Shown here: one piece after another, positions 8,338-57,427 of the stretch
Numbering within the stretch: position 1 is the first letter of the stretch
How the letters are laid out: each line of letters begins with the position of its first letter
Source of the DNA: Candidatus Saccharimonadota bacterium
GTDB lineage: Bacteria > Patescibacteriota > Saccharimonadia > Saccharimonadales > Saccharimonadaceae
Direction: 5' to 3'
DNA length: 64,000 nucleotides
Assembly (NCBI GenBank): GCA_030531645.1
Contig: JAUNNB010000002.1
Coordinates: 8,988-72,987 of the forward strand
Translations under genes and position numbers: made by a program
Notes under the pieces: model-generated
What the model was told of the DNA's origin: nothing
The model's input: the letters and a program-made list of their open reading frames with translations, nothing else
Databases searched by the model: none

Positions 8338-10839
8338 TTATTTCTCCTTTTTATCAATAATTAATATGAGCTTGTCTTTCTTTAAATCAATAGTTGCGAT
8401 TTGACCGCGTTTGATTTCTTCTTTGATGATGGCATCGGAGATGAGAGTTTCGACATTATCTTCAATGGCGCGGCGGAGTGGGCGGGCACCGTTCTTTGGA
8501 TCATAGCCAAGATTGATGAGCCAGTCTTTGGCTTCTGGGGTAATCTTGATGCCGATAGCTTTGGTGGCAAGGCGCTTCTTTAGCTCATTGATGAGGTTAT
8601 CGAAGATTTTTTCAACTTGCTTGTGAGTGAGTGCGTGGAAGACGAGGGTTGCGTCGAGACGGTTGATTAGCTCTGGGCGCATGGCCTTCTTGAGAGCGCG
8701 GAGGGCGGCCTCCTTGGAATATTCATACTCCTCGGCGAGTTTCTTTTCATCGGCCTTAGTTTTGACAGAGAAGCCGAGCTCTTGGTCGTCATACATTTCG
8801 GAAGCACCGAGGTTGGATGTGAGAATAACGACAGTGTTGTTAAATTTAATTTTATTGCCTTGGCCATCGGTCAAAACGCCATCTTCAAGGATTTGGAGAA
8901 GCATATTAAAGACATCTGGGTGGGCTTTTTCGATTTCATCAAAGAGGACCACGGAATATGGACGACGACGGACGGCTTCAGTGAGCTTACCACCGTCATC
9001 ATAGCCGACATAGCCGGCTGGAGCGCCGACAAGACGAGATACATTGTGCTTTTCGCCGAACTCGGACATATCAATTTTAATGAGGGCATTATCACCGCCA
9101 AAGACTTCGCGTGCAATGACGCGGGCGAGCTCGGTTTTGCCGACGCCGGTTGGGCCCATAAAGATAAATGAGCCAATAGGGCGCTTTGGATCACCGACAC
9201 CAGAGCGACCACGGCGGATAGCCTTGGAAACTACTTCAATGGCTTCATCTTGGCCGATGACTTGTTCTTTCAAGTGGTCTTCTAGATTGACTAGAAGTTT
9301 CATCTCAGAACCGTGAACCTTAGAAACAGGGATACCGGTTTTGAGGCTAATAGCAGTAGCAAGGTGTTCTTCGGTGAGCTTTGGTACCTTCTCGGACTTG
9401 CCTTCCTTTGCGGCTTTCTTGGCGCCTTTTTCAGCGGTTTTGAGTTCCTTTTCAAGCTGAGCAAGGCGGGTCTTGTAGAGAGCAGCCTTTTCGAAATCCT
9501 GCTCGTCTGCGGCTTTTTCGATTTTCTCGAGGAGAGATTGTTGTTCGATTTTGAGCTTCTTGTAACGACCACCACCTTTCTTGTCGTGAGCGACTTTGCA
9601 AATAGCGGAAGCTTCATCGATAACATCGATAACTTTATCTGGCATAAAGCGATCGTTGATATAACGGCTGGACATATTGATGGCGGTTTCAAGAATACTG
9701 TCTGAAATGGTGACAGTGTGGTGCTTTTCGTAGTGGGACTTAATTCCCTTGAGGATGCGGAGGGTGACAGCTGGAGATGGCTCTTCGACAACGACAGTTT
9801 GGAAGCGGCGAGAGAGAGCGTGATCTTTTTCGATGCTCTTGCGGTATTCGTCGAGGGTGGTTGCGCCGATGAGGCAAATTTGGCCACGAGCGAGAGCAGG
9901 TTTCAAAATGTTGGCGGCGTCCATAGTGCTGTCTCCGGCGCCACCTGCGCCAACTAAGAGGTGGAGCTCATCGATGAAGAGGATAATTTCTGGGTTCTCG
10001 ATAGTTTCATCAATAACGCCTTTGATGCGTTCCTCAAAATCACCACGGAGTTTAGCACCAGCGACCATAGCGCTGAGGTCGATTTCTATGATGCGCTTGC
10101 CGATAAGTTGGCCCGGGACTTCGTTTTTGGCAATGCGAGTAGCGAGACCTTCGACAATGGCGGTCTTACCAACGCCGGCTTCGCCAATGAGAACTGGGTT
10201 GGACTTAGTGCGACGACAGAGGACGGTAACAGTGCGCTCGATTTCGTTATCACGGCCAATGACGGTGTCGAGTTTGCCTTGGCGGGCTTCTTCGGTGAGG
10301 TCGCGGCCATAGCGAGCGAGGTATTTGAGTTGTTTTTTGTTCTTGAACTTAGCTTTCTTATCTTCAATCTTAGCTTCTTCGGCCTGCTTGACGGCGAGAT
10401 CTTCGATAGTGTCAGCCACTTCATCGAGGTCTAGACCGAGCTTCTGGAGGATAATTGCCGCATGGGAATTAGGCTGAGCGACAATGGAATGGAGAATATG
10501 CTCAGTGCCGATGATTTTGAGCCCCATTTCTTTAGTAAAGACGGCAGCCATTCTGAGAGTGAGGACAGCAGCCTCGGAGAGGGACATCATAGAGAGTTCG
10601 CCAGCCGGAACATCGGTGGCAGGAGCGGAGATTTCGCGCTCGACAGTGTCTAAGTAAATGCCATCATCAGCAAGGATATGGGCGCCAGTAGAAACATCTT
10701 GGTCTAGGATACCGAGGAGAAGATGTTCTGTGGAGATATAACCTTTGTTGTATTTCTTCGCAAAGAAGTCGGCCTTCTGGACCGCAAGACGAGCATTTTC
10801 GGATAGACGATTCATCATCTCTGTAAATTCATCGTTCAT
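8338..10839 (-). CDS. clpC: ATP-dependent Clp protease ATPase (ClpC-type)
   Basis: Clp N-domain, two Walker A motifs ([16 protein letters not shown]), UVR-like middle coil. Confidence 0.92.
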
Positions 10840-10861
10840 ATAGCCATTATACTCCTGTTAA

Positions 10862-10888
10862 TTAGCACTGTCAAGGGTCGAGTGCTAA
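10862..10888. promoter_or_regulatory. CIRCE element (HrcA operator) overlapping the -35 of the clpC operon promoter
   Basis: Minus strand TTAGCACTC-N9-CAGTGCTAA (one mismatch to consensus) containing TTGACA; TATAAT 17 bp downstream (10846-10851). Confidence 0.9.
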
Positions 10889-10944
10889 AATACTGTAGTA
10901 CTGTCGGATTGCGAGATGTTGGATGATGAAGCCTGCGAATTGTA

Positions 10945-11406
10945 TTACTGTTCTGCCATGAGAAGACAGTAGCCGTCCTCACTAATATCTGCTAACAATA
11001 TGAGCCCGAGAATGATCCTGTCTCTTGCCAAAATATGTTGGTCGCTTTTTGGAACGCCAAGCTCACCCTTTTTTGCAGTAATATATGAAATTTCTATGAA
11101 CTTCGTCTTTTTTGAGTAGCGCTTAACAGAGTCAAAAGTATAACTATCGAGCCATTCGTAATCTATGTCTAGACAGCCTTCGTCGGTGAATTCTGCTTCG
11201 TAAATACGTTCGTCCTCTGGTATTCCTAGAATATCGTAGCATTCGTCTATTTTCTTCTTAACTTTTTCATAGTCTGAAATAAAATATACACGGTATTCAT
11301 CTCTATCGCATTCGTCGGATTTGAAAAATTTCTTTGGGTCATCACTTGGCTGTGAATAGCCGAATTTCCCACGTTTCCTCGCAAATGTTGAATAGTATCT
11401 TCCCAT
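10945..11406 (-). CDS. Hypothetical protein (153 aa, start MGRYYS)
   Basis: AAGGAGG RBS before the ATG at 11406; AT-rich; divergent from the HTH-Panacea gene. Confidence 0.7.
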   Translation of the reverse strand: MGRYYSTFARKRGKFGYSQPSDDPKKFFKSDECDRDEYRVYFISDYEKVKKKIDECYDILGIPEDERIYEAEFTDEGCLDIDYEWLDSYTFDSVKRYSKKTKFIEISYITAKKGELGVPKSDQHILARDRIILGLILLADISEDGYCLLMAEQ

Positions 11407-11521
11407 TTTAACCTCCTTTATGTAAATAATTATATACATTGGTTTTGATTTTGCAATAGAAAATATAAATATTTTTGTATTTTTTATTGACTGTATGTTA
11501 AAAATAATATACAATTAAGGT

Positions 11522-12229
11522 ATGGAAGATAAGAATATTTTCAGGATAAATCTGCGTAAGTATAGAAAGATGGCTGGCCTCACTCAAGAGCAGTTTGCAA
11601 AACATCTCGGCATTTCTCGCGTTTCTTATAATAAGTTAGAACAGGGAGACCGTGTCCCTAGTCTGGATGATATTACTAATATTGCACGCATTTTGAATAT
11701 AAGCATGCTGGATCTATTGGATATAGGAGTTATTCCGGAGGCTCATGCACATGAAAAATTTGAGCAAGTATATCATTATATCTTGAATAATTATTTCCCT
11801 GAGGGTATTCCTAAAACTAAACTAGCGAAGATTTTATATCTTATAGACTTCTCAAATTATTACTTGTATTTAGATCCAATGACAGAAGCTACTTATTTCC
11901 ATAAGCCGTATGGTCCCGTAGCGGATGTCTTTCTGGAGCTCACAGATGCTTTGTATGAAGAAGCTAGGATAGATATCCAGATTAATGGCGAAGCTATGCT
12001 TATAAAGCCAGTTGAGAAGCATGATGATAACTTGATTACAGATAGGGATAAAAAATTGATTGAGAAGGTGTGTGATTATTGGAAAGATAGAAGGACGAAA
12101 GAGATAGTGAATTTCACGCATCAGCAGCTGCCTTATAAGACTAGTTATCCTAATAACAGAATCCCATTTTACTCAATAGGACAGGAGGCCCCAGACAATG
12201 TTTTCGCACCAGTTGATATCTACGGATAA
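11522..12229 (+). CDS. XRE-HTH plus Panacea (DUF4065/SocA-like) antitoxin
   Basis: N-terminal LTQEQFAKHLGISRVSYNKLEQG HTH; KTKLAKILYLIDF...PYGPV and LVNFTH-like (IVNFTHQQLPY) DUF4065 motifs. Confidence 0.85.
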   Translation: MEDKNIFRINLRKYRKMAGLTQEQFAKHLGISRVSYNKLEQGDRVPSLDDITNIARILNISMLDLLDIGVIPEAHAHEKFEQVYHYILNNYFPEGIPKTKLAKILYLIDFSNYYLYLDPMTEATYFHKPYGPVADVFLELTDALYEEARIDIQINGEAMLIKPVEKHDDNLITDRDKKLIEKVCDYWKDRRTKEIVNFTHQQLPYKTSYPNNRIPFYSIGQEAPDNVFAPVDIYG

Positions 12230-12632
12230 TTTAGCATTTTTAACCACATTTAGCGAGTACTCTTTAAGGCATTTTAAGAGGAATTTTGAAAAAGATTACC
12301 CTAAAAAGGTATGGAGAGAGACAGAAAAATCTATCCTCTATGAAATCTCAGAAATATCGAAGAATAATTTAGGATTTACTCAAAAAGTTGATGAACTTTG
12401 GCAAAAAGACAACTTTTGGATCTTTAAATATGATTTTCGTATTGTGGGTATGAAGAAATCTACTAGGTCGGCTGGCAATAGGTGTATTGTTTTTCTAGAT
12501 AATCTAAAGAAACAGGCAGAAATACTTCTGATTTATAGAAAGACGGATTTACCTAAAAATAAATCGGAGCAAGCATATATTGAAGCTGTTGTTAGAAACG
12601 AATTTCCTAGTTATTACAGCGCAACTAGATAA
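12198..12632 (+). CDS. Putative RelE/ParE-fold toxin
   Basis: Overlaps the antitoxin 3' end; KYDFRIVGMKKSTRSAGNRCIVF...EILLIYRKTD resembles the RelE-like K.R...GKSGG.R.IY...LL.IY.K pattern. Confidence 0.65.
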   Translation: MFSHQLISTDNLAFLTTFSEYSLRHFKRNFEKDYPKKVWRETEKSILYEISEISKNNLGFTQKVDELWQKDNFWIFKYDFRIVGMKKSTRSAGNRCIVFLDNLKKQAEILLIYRKTDLPKNKSEQAYIEAVVRNEFPSYYSATR

Positions 12633-12634
12633 GG

Positions 12635-12705
12635 CGAAACTGGCTCTATCCCAGGATCTCTGGGCAGGCATCCAGAACGGACGCTTTTCGAGCCAGCCTC
12701 TTTCA
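12635..12705 (-). ncRNA. Candidate small three-way-junction RNA convergent on the toxin gene
   Basis: Stems CTGGCTC/GAGCCAG, GCGTCC/GGATGC and CCCAG/CTGGG; TATAAT at 12712-12717 on the minus strand. Confidence 0.4.
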
Positions 12706-12758
12706 TCAATTATTATACTAAATCGCTAGAAAGATGCTAATAACTTTTATATTGCGTC

Positions 12759-12796
12759 AAAAGGTAATTACCTTTTCAATAGCATGATTACCTTTT
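12759..12796. promoter_or_regulatory. Perfect 18-bp palindrome plus repeated half-site (candidate operator)
   Basis: AAAAGGTAATTACCTTTT at 12759-12776; ATTACCTTTT repeated 20 bp later at 12787-12796. Confidence 0.55.
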
Positions 12797-12852
12797 CCCG
12801 ATAAGCATAAGAACCTATTGCAAAAATGTTTATGTTGTGGTATAATAGTAAC

Positions 12853-12992
12853 AGCTACAACTTTATTCAATACTTTAAAATACTGTTTGTTCACAAGCGT
12901 TAAATAGCGGCCATAATCGCAGTTTATGCTTGTTTTCGAACAGTATTGAATTGCAAAAGTTGTAGCGACTGATTGTGGTCGCTATTTTATTT
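12853..12992 (+). ncRNA. Candidate structured leader or sRNA (long hairpin plus overlapping terminator)
   Basis: Promoter TTGCAA-17-TATAAT (12818-12846); stems 12854-64/12956-66, 12879-89/12937-47 and 12893-99/12927-33; terminator 12963-69/12978-84 plus T-tract. Confidence 0.55.
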
Positions 12993-13010
12993 TATAAAGA
13001 AAGGAATAAT

Positions 13011-13340
13011 ATGTTTGCTGTAGTTGTTATAGCATTGTTATCATATAATATTTTAAAATCAAAAGTATTAAGACAAGAACCGTTAAATGATGCGAATGGG
13101 TTTTTACTGGGCTTCTTTAATCCAATATTACCAGCCTTGCTGATAGTAAACCAATTGGATGGATTGCGAATGCAAGTTAAAACTTCTAGCAGAACAAAAA
13201 GTAGAGCCATAGAAGATGGTATGTGGGATATGAAACGATCAGTTTGGACTGGGATTTTAGCTCGTCTTGTTTTATGTGGCATAATTTTCTTTATACTGAC
13301 ATATAATGGTGGTTATCATAGTTATCATACCTCGTATTAA
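13011..13340 (+). CDS. Small membrane protein (109 aa)
   Basis: AAAGGA RBS before the ATG at 13011; hydrophobic segments. Confidence 0.65.
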   Translation: MFAVVVIALLSYNILKSKVLRQEPLNDANGFLLGFFNPILPALLIVNQLDGLRMQVKTSSRTKSRAIEDGMWDMKRSVWTGILARLVLCGIIFFILTYNGGYHSYHTSY

Positions 13341-13365
13341 AAAGAGCCCCGAGGGGCTCTTTTTT
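13339..13365. terminator. Bidirectional intrinsic terminator
   Basis: AAAAGAGCCCC-GA-GGGGCTCTTTTT between convergent genes. Confidence 0.8.
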
Positions 13366-13612
13366 AGACTTCTTCTGTGTGACCACAGTCTTGGCAGACG
13401 GCAATTTTCTTTTGGACATTCTTGATCTTTTTGCGTTTCCCTACGAAAATCGCAAAGATGAGTGCCGGAATTGTGAATATGAGCCACTTTATGAAAATCC
13501 ACCACCAACCAATGCAAAGCCACCAGATGATGCCATGATGTTTTGTGACTAGCTCAGATTCGTTGACTACCTGAACCTGCATATTTGAGCTTTTGCATTT
13601 TGGACAATTCAT
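13364..13612 (-). CDS. Small membrane protein with split zinc ribbon (LITAF-like topology)
   Basis: CPKC at the N-terminus, Trp-rich hydrophobic hairpin, CQDC at the C-terminus. Confidence 0.7.
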   Translation of the reverse strand: MNCPKCKSSNMQVQVVNESELVTKHHGIIWWLCIGWWWIFIKWLIFTIPALIFAIFVGKRKKIKNVQKKIAVCQDCGHTEEV

Positions 13613-13621
13613 CTGATACTC

Positions 13622-14806
13622 CTATTCCCCGAGGATTTCACCGGCTTTGCGGATCATTTCTTCGAACTCATCGGTGCGGATGACCCAAATAGGTTTGGAG
13701 CCTTCTGATGCGATGTTGGTATGGCGCTCAGGCATATCGGCGACATTCTTGTCCTCGTCGAGAGAGAAGCCGAGGTATGCGAGCTTTTGACAGACCATCT
13801 TGCGGATTTCGTCGGAGCGTTCGCCGATAGTAGCGGTAAAGACGATTGCGTCTACGCCACCGAGAGAGGCAGCCATCTGGCCAATAGCGGTCTGAATGCG
13901 ATAAACATAGAGGGCGTGGGCGAAAGTACCGAGCTTATCGCCTTCGTCGCGGAGTTGGATAATCTCGCGCATGTCATCAGTTTTACCAGATACGCCTTTG
14001 AGGCCACATTCCTTATTGAGGTATTTCTCAAGTGCTTCATCAGAGGCGATCTTCTTGTTTTTCTTGATAGCGAGAGCAGCTGCGACATCGATATTGCCGG
14101 AGCGGGTGGACATCATAAGACCATCGAGTGGGCTGTAACCCATAGTGGTATCGTGGCTTTTGCCATCAAAGACAGCGGTAAGTGAAGAACCAGAACCGAT
14201 GTGGCAGACAATAAGTTTCTCTGGGAGGATTTCCTCTTTCTTCATGTAGTTGACGATAGAGCCAACAGAGAGGCCGTGGAAGCCCCAACGCTTGATATCG
14301 TATTTATCGGCGAGCTCTTGGTCGATAGCGTAAGCCTTCATAAGCTCTGGACGAGCAGTATGGAAGCCGGAGTCTGAAATGGCAATAATAGGGGTGCCAC
14401 GGAAGGTGACCATAAAGTGCTCGATTTCGGCTGCAACTACAGGAACATGGAGAGGTGCCTTTTTCTTGGCTACTTCAAGTTGTTTCAAACATTCATCATC
14501 AACGATGTGATCGTGTGAGAAGTATTCACCAGGGGCGGCAACGCGAGCTAGGATGGCATCGAGACCGCGAGCTTTGGTGATATAGCCTTCGTCTTCGAGG
14601 ATGTTATCGAGGTTGGCAACGGTAGATGTGAGTTCCTTGAAAGCACAGTTAATCTTTTTCTTGGAACCATCAGCCTTCTTCATCGTACAGACTATTTTGC
14701 CGCCTTCGAACTCGAAGTGGAACGAACATTCAAGCTTGTCGCCGTGGTAGAGAGCGTATTTACGAGAAGAACTCCCTGGATTAGTAATCAAAATCAGTTT
14801 TTCCAT
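13622..14806 (-). CDS. ackA: Acetate kinase
   Basis: NPGSSSRK, RWGFHGLS, HIGSGSS, MGYSPLDGLMMSTRSG and FTATIGE motifs. Confidence 0.92.
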   Translation of the reverse strand: MEKLILITNPGSSSRKYALYHGDKLECSFHFEFEGGKIVCTMKKADGSKKKINCAFKELTSTVANLDNILEDEGYITKARGLDAILARVAAPGEYFSHDHIVDDECLKQLEVAKKKAPLHVPVVAAEIEHFMVTFRGTPIIAISDSGFHTARPELMKAYAIDQELADKYDIKRWGFHGLSVGSIVNYMKKEEILPEKLIVCHIGSGSSLTAVFDGKSHDTTMGYSPLDGLMMSTRSGNIDVAAALAIKKNKKIASDEALEKYLNKECGLKGVSGKTDDMREIIQLRDEGDKLGTFAHALYVYRIQTAIGQMAASLGGVDAIVFTATIGERSDEIRKMVCQKLAYLGFSLDEDKNVADMPERHTNIASEGSKPIWVIRTDEFEEMIRKAGEILGE

Positions 14807-56771: not shown

Positions 56772-56776
56772 CAATT

Positions 56777-56896
56777 AAAATAAGCCGAAATGCTATCACG
56801 GGGCCGTTCCTTCGAGCCCATCGTTATGGGTCTCAGTCACTGTTATTTCGCCCGTCGCGAAATGACTCCCCTTAGATAGTATTTCAGGCTTATTTT
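56777..56896 (+). ncRNA. Candidate 120-nt multibranch structured RNA 3' of khpA
   Basis: About 21-bp basal stem (56777-97/56875-96), GGGG/CCCC helix and two internal hairpins. Confidence 0.5.
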
Positions 56897-57427
56897 TTAT
56901 TCAAAGTCGTGGTTGACCTTTTCTATCTTGGTCATCACCCAGTCGTAATCTTCTTGTTTGAAGGTGGTACGGCAGAATTTGCAGAGGCCAGAGTTATTAG
57001 TTTCTAAGCTTTGACCGCACGTAGGGCATTTGGTGATAATGCCACGCTTCTTTGCGTCCTTACTCTTAGTAAATTCCAAGGAATATGTATCTACGGCACG
57101 ATAGTTGTCCTGACCTGATATAATTTTGTGTTCGTTTAGATCTAGGATATAGTCTAGATAGCGTGCTACAAGGGTGACTTTGGCCACATAATTCTCGCCG
57201 ACTTCATCAATACCATCTAAATGGCAGGATTTTACATTGAGCTCATCATACATTTGCCTTTGGTTCTTTTGTTTTAAATCCTCGACATTATTCACGAACT
57301 TGCTGTAAACTTCATCTGACATGAAGTGCTCTACTTCGCTCATCTTATCTAGCATTACTGCCGTATAAGTTTTTACGAAGATATTGCTGATGTTTGCGAT
57401 AAATGCAGTTTCGTCAAAGTTTTCCAT
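56897..57427 (-). CDS. TIM44-like domain protein with C-terminal zinc ribbon
   Basis: FDETAF..., EHFMSDEVY, CPTCG..CKFC and DWVMTKI motifs. Confidence 0.75.
   Translation of the reverse strand: MENFDETAFIANISNIFVKTYTAVMLDKMSEVEHFMSDEVYSKFVNNVEDLKQKNQRQMYDELNVKSCHLDGIDEVGENYVAKVTLVARYLDYILDLNEHKIISGQDNYRAVDTYSLEFTKSKDAKKRGIITKCPTCGQSLETNNSGLCKFCRTTFKQEDYDWVMTKIEKVNHDFE

Follow-up and report, generated by a model that had tools for sequence, protein, structure and literature searches.

The rod-shaped RNA that precedes an orphan 109-aa gene in a 64,000-nt stretch of a Candidatus Saccharimonadota genome (contig JAUNNB010000002.1, positions 8,988 to 72,987; hereafter the window, in whose own numbering coordinates are given) belongs to a new RNA family, which has no Rfam entry and which, as far as sampled, is confined to one Saccharibacteria family. 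From the arrangement and covariation of its homologs, we consider it probable, by a modest measure, that this RNA is a portable 5' leader that acts as a transcription attenuator for accessory genes. Each copy would constitute a self-contained accessory-gene head, comprising (i) an extended -10 promoter, (ii) the rod, (iii) an abutting terminator, (iv) a Shine-Dalgarno (SD) sequence, and (v) the gene. The family comprises at least 49 aligned copies, occurs in roughly one in four genomes sampled from one genus, and carries two independent layers of covariation; as a leader family, it would offer a handle on the way in which accessory genes exchanged horizontally are expressed in Saccharibacteria, and its conserved head could be used as a marker for accessory cassettes in CPR genomes. 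The genomes of these and other CPR bacteria are tiny and encode few known regulators, and, to our knowledge, almost no regulatory RNAs have been described in them.

The window copy is headed by a promoter that matches the consensus at 10 of 12 positions and that carries the TG of an extended -10 element at 12838-12839 (Table 1). Its transcript probably starts at ~12853, and the rod begins at 12854, in line with the sequence-only reading, in which the promoter's predicted start coincided with the rod's first base. That reading had described a rod of three helices, whereas the predicted fold contains five helical segments and a one-sided 10-nt bulge, with a further 4-nt bulge separating P1 from P2. 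The terminator with its T-tract, the ribosome-binding site, and the 109-aa gene all lie downstream of the rod as it had proposed. Together, the rod and the terminator fold with -45.1 kcal/mol (z = -5.5), and none of 200 dinucleotide shuffles was as stable; in a scan of the plus strand of the 771-kb genome, in which energy was regressed on G+C before ranking, the rod stood ~10th among 19,244 windows of 120 nt. The terminator hairpin by itself accounts for -11.8 kcal/mol, and its stem followed by TTTTATTTTAT is the sole terminator-like site in 12000-14000.

Table 1. Features of the window copy and its immediate neighborhood (window coordinates).
Feature	Position	Strand	Detail or basis
DUF3800-IX motif (RF02968)	12632-12700	-	47.1 bits; gathering score 36.8
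Promoter	12818-12846	+	-35 TTGCAA 12818-12823, 17-nt spacer, -10 TATAAT 12841-12846
Leader RNA as modelled	12853-12995	+	predicted start to end of U-tract; ~140 nt if terminated
Rod, 113 nt	12854-12966	+	predicted fold and covariation
Rod P1, 11 bp	12854-12864/12956-12966	+	fold
Rod P2, 5 bp	12865-12869/12947-12951	+	fold
One-sided 10-nt bulge (hinge)	12870-12879	+	fold
Rod P3, two parts	12880-12889/12937-12946 and 12893-12900/12926-12933	+	fold
Rod P4	12902-12905/12922-12925	+	fold
Segment A (5' strand of apical stem plus apical loop)	12906-12918	+	complementary to segment C (13 consecutive pairs with 12971-12983)
Apical stem, 4 bp	12907-12910/12917-12920	+	fold
Apical loop, 6 nt	12911-12916	+	fold
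Intrinsic terminator	12962-12995	+	stem 12962-12985, then U-tract 12986-12995
Segment C (terminator loop plus 3' arm)	12971-12983	+	partner is terminator 5' arm or segment A
Shine-Dalgarno AAGGA	13001-13005	+	5 nt ahead of ATG; read from sequence
Cargo gene P0001, orphan, 109 aa	13011-13340	+	ATG 13011; two or three hydrophobic segments
Two-way terminator hairpin	13339-13364	.	closes the unit; common to a convergent 82-aa gene

The 109-aa cargo protein belongs to no Pfam family, had zero relatives among 5.8 billion clustered proteins, and gave a single marginal 33-residue match among 1.84 billion representatives, so that homologous loci could not be collected through the protein. At the DNA level, a BLAST-type search with window 12700-13400 against 60 relatives returned terminator-like scraps only, and an exact 21-mer of the element had no match in the genome contig collection. 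When metagenomes were searched for the two 11-nt rod ends at a spacing of 81-101 nt, 19 loci were obtained, six of which (L031, L032, L034, L036, L042, and L043) resemble the window beyond these ends, having a TATAAT/TACAAT box 6-7 nt upstream, a similar rod, and a near-identical terminator directly after it. Loci that share the 11-nt ends alone and that gave no covariance-model match (L025, L030, L033, L035, L038, L039, and a 'family B') were set aside. A first covariance model, R1, was built from four near-identical L031-type metagenome sequences with a supplied structure, leaving out the window copy; in a search of 216 kb of DNA, it recovered window 12853-12992 with 47.0 bits (E ~1e-8) and L036 with 49.6 bits. 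Because neither of these copies was used to build R1, the matches are independent evidence of homology in both sequence and structure.

A second model, R2, built from seven aligned copies, scores the window copy at 97.2 bits. Within the window's genus, 43 of 151 sampled genomes were positive, with 58 matches in all and never more than three in one genome; within the window's family, 17 of 151 sampled genomes, representing 16 of 95 genera, had matches, never more than four each. These counts are not independent events, since the genomes carrying copies are related. Among 126 sampled genomes from other families of the class, there was no match. Forty-nine homologs were brought together in one alignment (A8). 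The sequence-only reading had recognized no known riboswitch, T-box, SRP, or 6S consensus in the rod, and comparison with Rfam 15 agrees with it: window 12000-14000, searched at E<=10, gave chance-level matches over the rod (MicX, 15.9 bits; snR95, 14.7 bits), and 16 other copies, searched at E<=0.01, gave flanking tRNAs only. The surroundings (~1.5 kb) of 16 copies contained no hammerhead, and a literature search of open-access text returned no description of the rod RNA.

Covariation among the collected homologs is strong, both in the rod and in a second pairing described below. Across the rod, the apical stem, and the terminator in A8, 92.9% of cells are paired (a percentage inflated for the rod by the fitting of its alignment to the model), compared with 65.6% in shuffled alignments and 32-40% when the partner columns were slid. 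The same helices contain 526 cells with two-sided changes, against 141 after shuffling and 78-94 after sliding, and 36 of the 44 pairs have changed on both sides among the 49 sequences; in P1, pairing reaches 99.3%, and single positions show as many as six pair types. Although the alignment was fitted to the model, the comparison with slid columns and the values for P1 indicate that the rod helix is real. Across copies, P3 forms an almost perfect duplex, 17-25 bp long, and a one-sided bulge of ~10 to 25 nt, without conserved sequence, is present in every copy.

The helices contain 127 G.U pairs as against 10 A.C mismatches, and, in all copies tested, folding of the promoter strand is favored over that of the reverse by 3-11 kcal/mol (-45.1 versus -38.1 kcal/mol for the window element), as anticipated from the G-U pairs that the sequence-only reading had found to favor the plus strand. 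Both observations argue for selection on a plus-strand RNA rather than on a DNA palindrome. They also bear on the explanation that the element acts at the DNA level, as a palindromic MITE remnant or a recombination site without any RNA function, which would suit a long inverted repeat inside a low-G+C islet and the finding of cassettes between different housekeeping genes in different genomes, a sign that the units move. We regard this explanation as extremely improbable, since (i) the G.U excess reflects selection on one strand as RNA, (ii) a promoter at fixed distance and a U-tract terminator belong to the conserved unit, (iii) genomes with the element carry one to four copies, and target-site duplications are absent, and (iv) a degenerate pattern, sensitive enough to pick up about one in three known copies, had zero matches among 2.9 million viral contigs. 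A MITE or repeated palindrome in particular was rejected on the same G.U excess and on copy number, the rod RNA being present once in its own genome (771 kb, 99% complete) and at most four times elsewhere.

Almost every copy shows the same order of elements, namely a TATAAT box, the rod, a terminator with a U-tract, an SD sequence, and a co-directional gene. A TATAAT-like -10 box (at least five of six positions) lies upstream in 46 of the 49 homologs, its end being 5-6 nt from the first modelled base in 45, and the TG of an extended -10 element is present in 33. Rod length varies from 105 to 150 nt. The terminator stem GCGACU/RGUCGC and its U-run are kept in 46 homologs, and this stem is conserved as sequence, with zero two-sided changes. 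In 41 of 49 homologs, both an SD sequence and a start codon are found no more than 70 nt past the U-tract, the median distance from the modelled end to the start being 25 nt, and the nearest downstream gene is co-directional in all copies but one. With the SD and start so close past the U-tract, there is no space for a separate promoter, which identifies the RNA as the 5' leader of the gene and implies that the gene would be made by read-through alone.

The genes under this leader are diverse. At the six metagenome loci, they are DNA methyltransferases from three Pfam families, followed by a second methyltransferase and a 419-425-aa protein, or by a GmrSD/HNH nuclease. The cargo more broadly comprises N6_N4, EcoRI-like, and D12 methyltransferases; two GIY-YIG proteins; a T2SSE-type ATPase and a T4SS pilin; OmpA-like and Listeria-Bacteroides-repeat proteins; an oxidoreductase; and two recurrent families without Pfam domains, as well as orphans such as the window ORF. 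The sequence-only reading had taken the element for either a novel cis-regulator of a small membrane protein or a stand-alone ~140-nt sRNA; its novelty and regulatory nature are supported by the lack of an Rfam match and by the covariation, whereas specificity for a membrane protein is not, many unrelated genes lying downstream. Membrane-protein cargo as a class was rejected, N-terminal hydrophobic segments not being enriched (16 of 44 cargo proteins as against 31% of the genome's long ORFs). The upstream neighbors are unrelated housekeeping genes (e.g., ychF, infB, infC, rpsL, rpmE, and dus), which suggests that the units have been inserted at many different places, and no linked regulator emerged among them.

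Between the U-tract and the SD sequence, 39 of the 49 copies contain a GCGRC-like motif, and several methyltransferase-linked copies have an extra GGUCGC just ahead of the ATG. One possibility suggested by these repeats is a leader with several interchangeable pairing partners, the alternative being a protein that recognizes GCGRC. In three methyltransferase-linked copies (L036:4446-4476, L043:498-531, and L078), the bases before the ATG, GGTCGCTACAA, repeat the 5' end of the RNA; they are complementary to the 3' arm of P1 and the 5' arm of the terminator, such that fold-back pairing of the start region with the leader would be possible.

The second layer of covariation connects the tip of the rod with the terminator. 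An inverted-repeat search found 12902-12918 to be complementary to 12971-12987, within which segments A and C form an uninterrupted helix (hereafter A:C; Table 1), the extended duplex having -25.3 kcal/mol. Every copy inspected has this complementarity, although the loop sequences differ. In A8, 95.5% of A:C cells are paired, as against 84.5% after shuffling and 21-58% after sliding, and this percentage is not inflated by the fitting of the alignment, since A:C is absent from the covariance model. Eight of the 13 pairs have changed on both sides, with 66 two-sided cells compared with 20.8 in shuffled and 2-17 in slid controls, and an analysis of 36 sequences gave the same result as that of 49. 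One pair between the apical loop and the terminator stem, for instance, is C-G in 29 copies, U-A in 14, and U-G in 2. Because bases of the apical loop pair with bases of the terminator stem, A:C and the terminator are mutually exclusive.

The sequence-only reading had placed the competition between the rod and the terminator in the TAGC that the base of the rod shares with the terminator stem. Competition does exist, in the form of the apical loop against the terminator; the shared TAGC is energetically trivial, as forcing the full terminator costs only ~1 kcal/mol in the window and in nearly all homologs, where the two helices abut, and we therefore rejected it as the switch. A:C itself is disfavored in nested folds: when it is forced, the fold is a median of 10 kcal/mol worse than the rod plus the terminator (4.2 kcal/mol worse in the window), in a comparison that excludes pseudoknots, so that the A:C fold has to give up the rod. 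This suggests that A:C depends on a kinetic head start, on a factor, or on bending of the rod to allow a pseudoknot.

Two other readings draw on these results. In the first, the terminated ~140-nt rod is a stand-alone sRNA that acts in trans through its apical and terminator loops, read-through into the cargo gene being secondary. A promoter and a canonical terminator do bracket the RNA in almost every copy; its two loops are complementary, so that like molecules could pair with one another or with nascent copies; and genomes with up to four copies exist, some of them with common loop types. Moreover, A:C is retained where the terminator stem is broken, namely in L061 and L066 (three stem mismatches) and in L086 (one), in all of which it is perfect through double changes. 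Retention of A:C in L061 and L066 in the absence of a working terminator stem also fits poorly with a purely anti-terminator role. We nevertheless hold this reading to be rather unlikely, since in 41 of 49 copies the U-tract is followed at close range (within 70 nt) by the SD sequence and start codon of a co-directional gene without space for a separate promoter, which is the layout of a leader.

In the second, the element is a constitutive cassette head, in which the rod is a 5' stabilizer or an RNase III site, the terminator is leaky to a fixed degree, and A:C is a compacting or protective tertiary contact. The rod begins 1-2 nt from the predicted 5' end, which is the geometry of known 5' stem-loop stabilizers; its P3 duplex is a plausible RNase III substrate; the rod plus the terminator is the ground state by the median of 10 kcal/mol given above; and the unrelated cargo genes argue against one specific signal. 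On the other hand, the covarying pairs of the apical loop with the terminator stem are mutually exclusive with that stem, which a pure loop-loop contact does not need, and a stabilizer needs no terminator between itself and the gene. This reading is in our estimation decidedly unlikely.

Returning to the attenuator that we favor, the rod and the terminator would fold by default, such that transcription stops and a rod RNA of ~120-145 nt is released, and the downstream gene would be expressed only through read-through. The extent of read-through would be set by A capturing C and thereby blocking the terminator stem; as the loop half of C is transcribed ahead of the 3' arm, A may capture C before the stem closes. 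Candidate modulators of this capture are (i) a bend at the one-sided bulge, (ii) a protein bound to the apical loop or to the GCGRC repeats, and (iii) the terminated RNA acting on nascent copies.

A metabolite or ion riboswitch, with the rod as its aptamer, would likewise occupy a 5' leader and join a terminator and a competing pairing into what resembles an expression platform, and a compaction-type sensor, such as a metal-ion sensor, is conceivable. Against it, the helix sequences of the rod vary freely, the bulge is conserved in neither length nor sequence, and a conserved core of unpaired nucleotides is lacking: conservation outside the helices is poor, and where bases are conserved, they are engaged in segments A, B, and C. 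Further, the downstream genes share no common pathway, and there were zero riboswitch matches in Rfam. A riboswitch is therefore a very improbable explanation.

Judged from its sequence, the element has the layout of a generic intrinsic-terminator attenuator, in that a promoter and a terminator with a U-tract lie upstream of a co-directional ORF, and its alternative pairing, A:C, covaries and includes bases of the terminator 3' arm. Among known systems, the rod RNA would be most like the terminator/antiterminator leaders (riboswitch platforms, T-box, and protein-dependent leaders), here heading portable accessory-gene units. It shares with them a structured promoter-proximal leader, a terminator before the SD and the gene, and a terminator 3' arm that has a second, covarying partner upstream. 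It differs from them in three respects, namely (i) the rod RNA has no conserved ligand-, tRNA-, or known protein-binding core; (ii) the competitor is located at a great distance from the terminator, in the loop at the tip of a 45-50-bp rod; and (iii) the genes under it are mutually unrelated, and it has no Rfam match. An apical loop ~50 bp from the terminator for which it competes would make this an unusual attenuator design.

Countertranscript-driven attenuation in plasmids pT181, pIP501, and pAMbeta1 and the Anti-Q/prgQ system of pCF10 also offer parallels: they involve leaders of mobile or accessory genes, in which loop-initiated RNA pairing decides the fate of the terminator and the short RNA is abundant. 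Their partner, however, is an antisense RNA from the opposite strand, whereas both partners of the rod RNA reside on one transcript, and no conserved antisense promoter was seen at the rod RNA copies. The 5' stem-loop mRNA stabilizers (the ompA, ermC, and aprE leaders and the cryIIIA STAB-SD) resemble it in having a hairpin at the very 5' end of the transcript that can be moved between genes, but theirs are short hairpins, with neither a terminator behind them nor a covarying long-range partner. With the fbi fold-back of hok/sok, it shares a conserved pairing between distant parts of the transcript, and the window cargo is small and hydrophobic; in contrast to hok/sok, however, the cargo is mostly not toxin-like (methyltransferases, nucleases, and pilus parts), and the window protein has 109 residues. 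Type I toxins are encoded by small hydrophobic ORFs, usually of under 60 aa, with an overlapping antisense RNA. A type I toxin-antitoxin locus was rejected on the grounds of a 109-aa orphan ORF, varied cargo, and the lack of an evident antisense RNA.

An extension of the attenuator, to which we attach little credence, is that it is self-addressed: the loop and the terminator would form co-evolving addresses, and the terminated RNA would feed back in trans on nascent leaders with the same address. If true, this would amount to a portable copy-number-sensing or bistable switch for swappable defense and surface-gene cassettes, and to a sense-encoded counterpart of plasmid countertranscript control.

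The window copy lies in a low-G+C islet (~10800-13400, with 31-38% G+C as against ~50% in its flanks) bounded by clpC and ackA. In addition to the rod unit, the islet contains a 189-aa gene, an HTH-Panacea antitoxin gene with an overlapping 144-aa partner, and a DUF3800-IX motif. Synteny around ackA in relatives did not define the boundaries of an insertion, the divergence (at most 74% identity) being too great. The HTH-Panacea gene and the 144-aa gene form a two-gene module (window 11522-12632), which is kept at 44-52% identity in three other Saccharibacteria records and in one Eubacteriales MAG (L021-L024); the 144-aa partner has ~29 protein clusters, none with a Pfam domain. Elsewhere, the module has no rod downstream, and we therefore rejected the rod as a part of it.

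The DUF3800-IX motif ends at the stop codon of the 144-aa gene, not beside a DUF3800 gene, and has a promoter-like site of its own (12740->12712). In nine other genomes of the family, DUF3800-IX adjoins DUF3800 genes of ~205 aa, mostly in convergent orientation, and in one case in the window's own genome (C5:30453-30515), it is upstream of a co-directional DUF3800 gene. The rod RNA was rejected as an instance of DUF3800-IX, the RF02968 match lying outside the rod unit and on the minus strand, and no rod was found near other DUF3800-IX loci.

The searches also brought up other structured elements. Seven metagenome loci (L026-L029, L037, L040, and L041) contain a different rod of ~140 nt, with 20-nt ends containing GCTACAACTTTGA and with no match to R1 or R2, which fills exactly the space from ~6 nt past a -10 box to the ATG of genes unrelated to one another. 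An ATG is present at both ends: the 5' one opens a 9-codon ORF in L026, the one copy examined for it, and the 3' one is the start of the gene and is stem-paired with G.U pairs. This rod looks like an element inserted into leaderless start codons. In the window's own genome, other long intergenic rods of similar rank in the fold scan lie at C6:47681, C7:22641, C8:4361, and C6:187881, the last of which directly follows a TATAAT box and has a T-run at its end. Four intergenic copies of a ~75-nt GC-rich core clamped by a long AT-rich helix (window ~56775-56900 on the minus strand, C6:135121, C7:19001, and C7:52121) matched no Rfam family at the gathering score. Finally, L038:1797-1904 contains a tRNA-like sequence inside a 13-bp helix, the ends of which are identical to those of the window rod (GCTACAACTTTCT...AGAAAGTTGTAGC).
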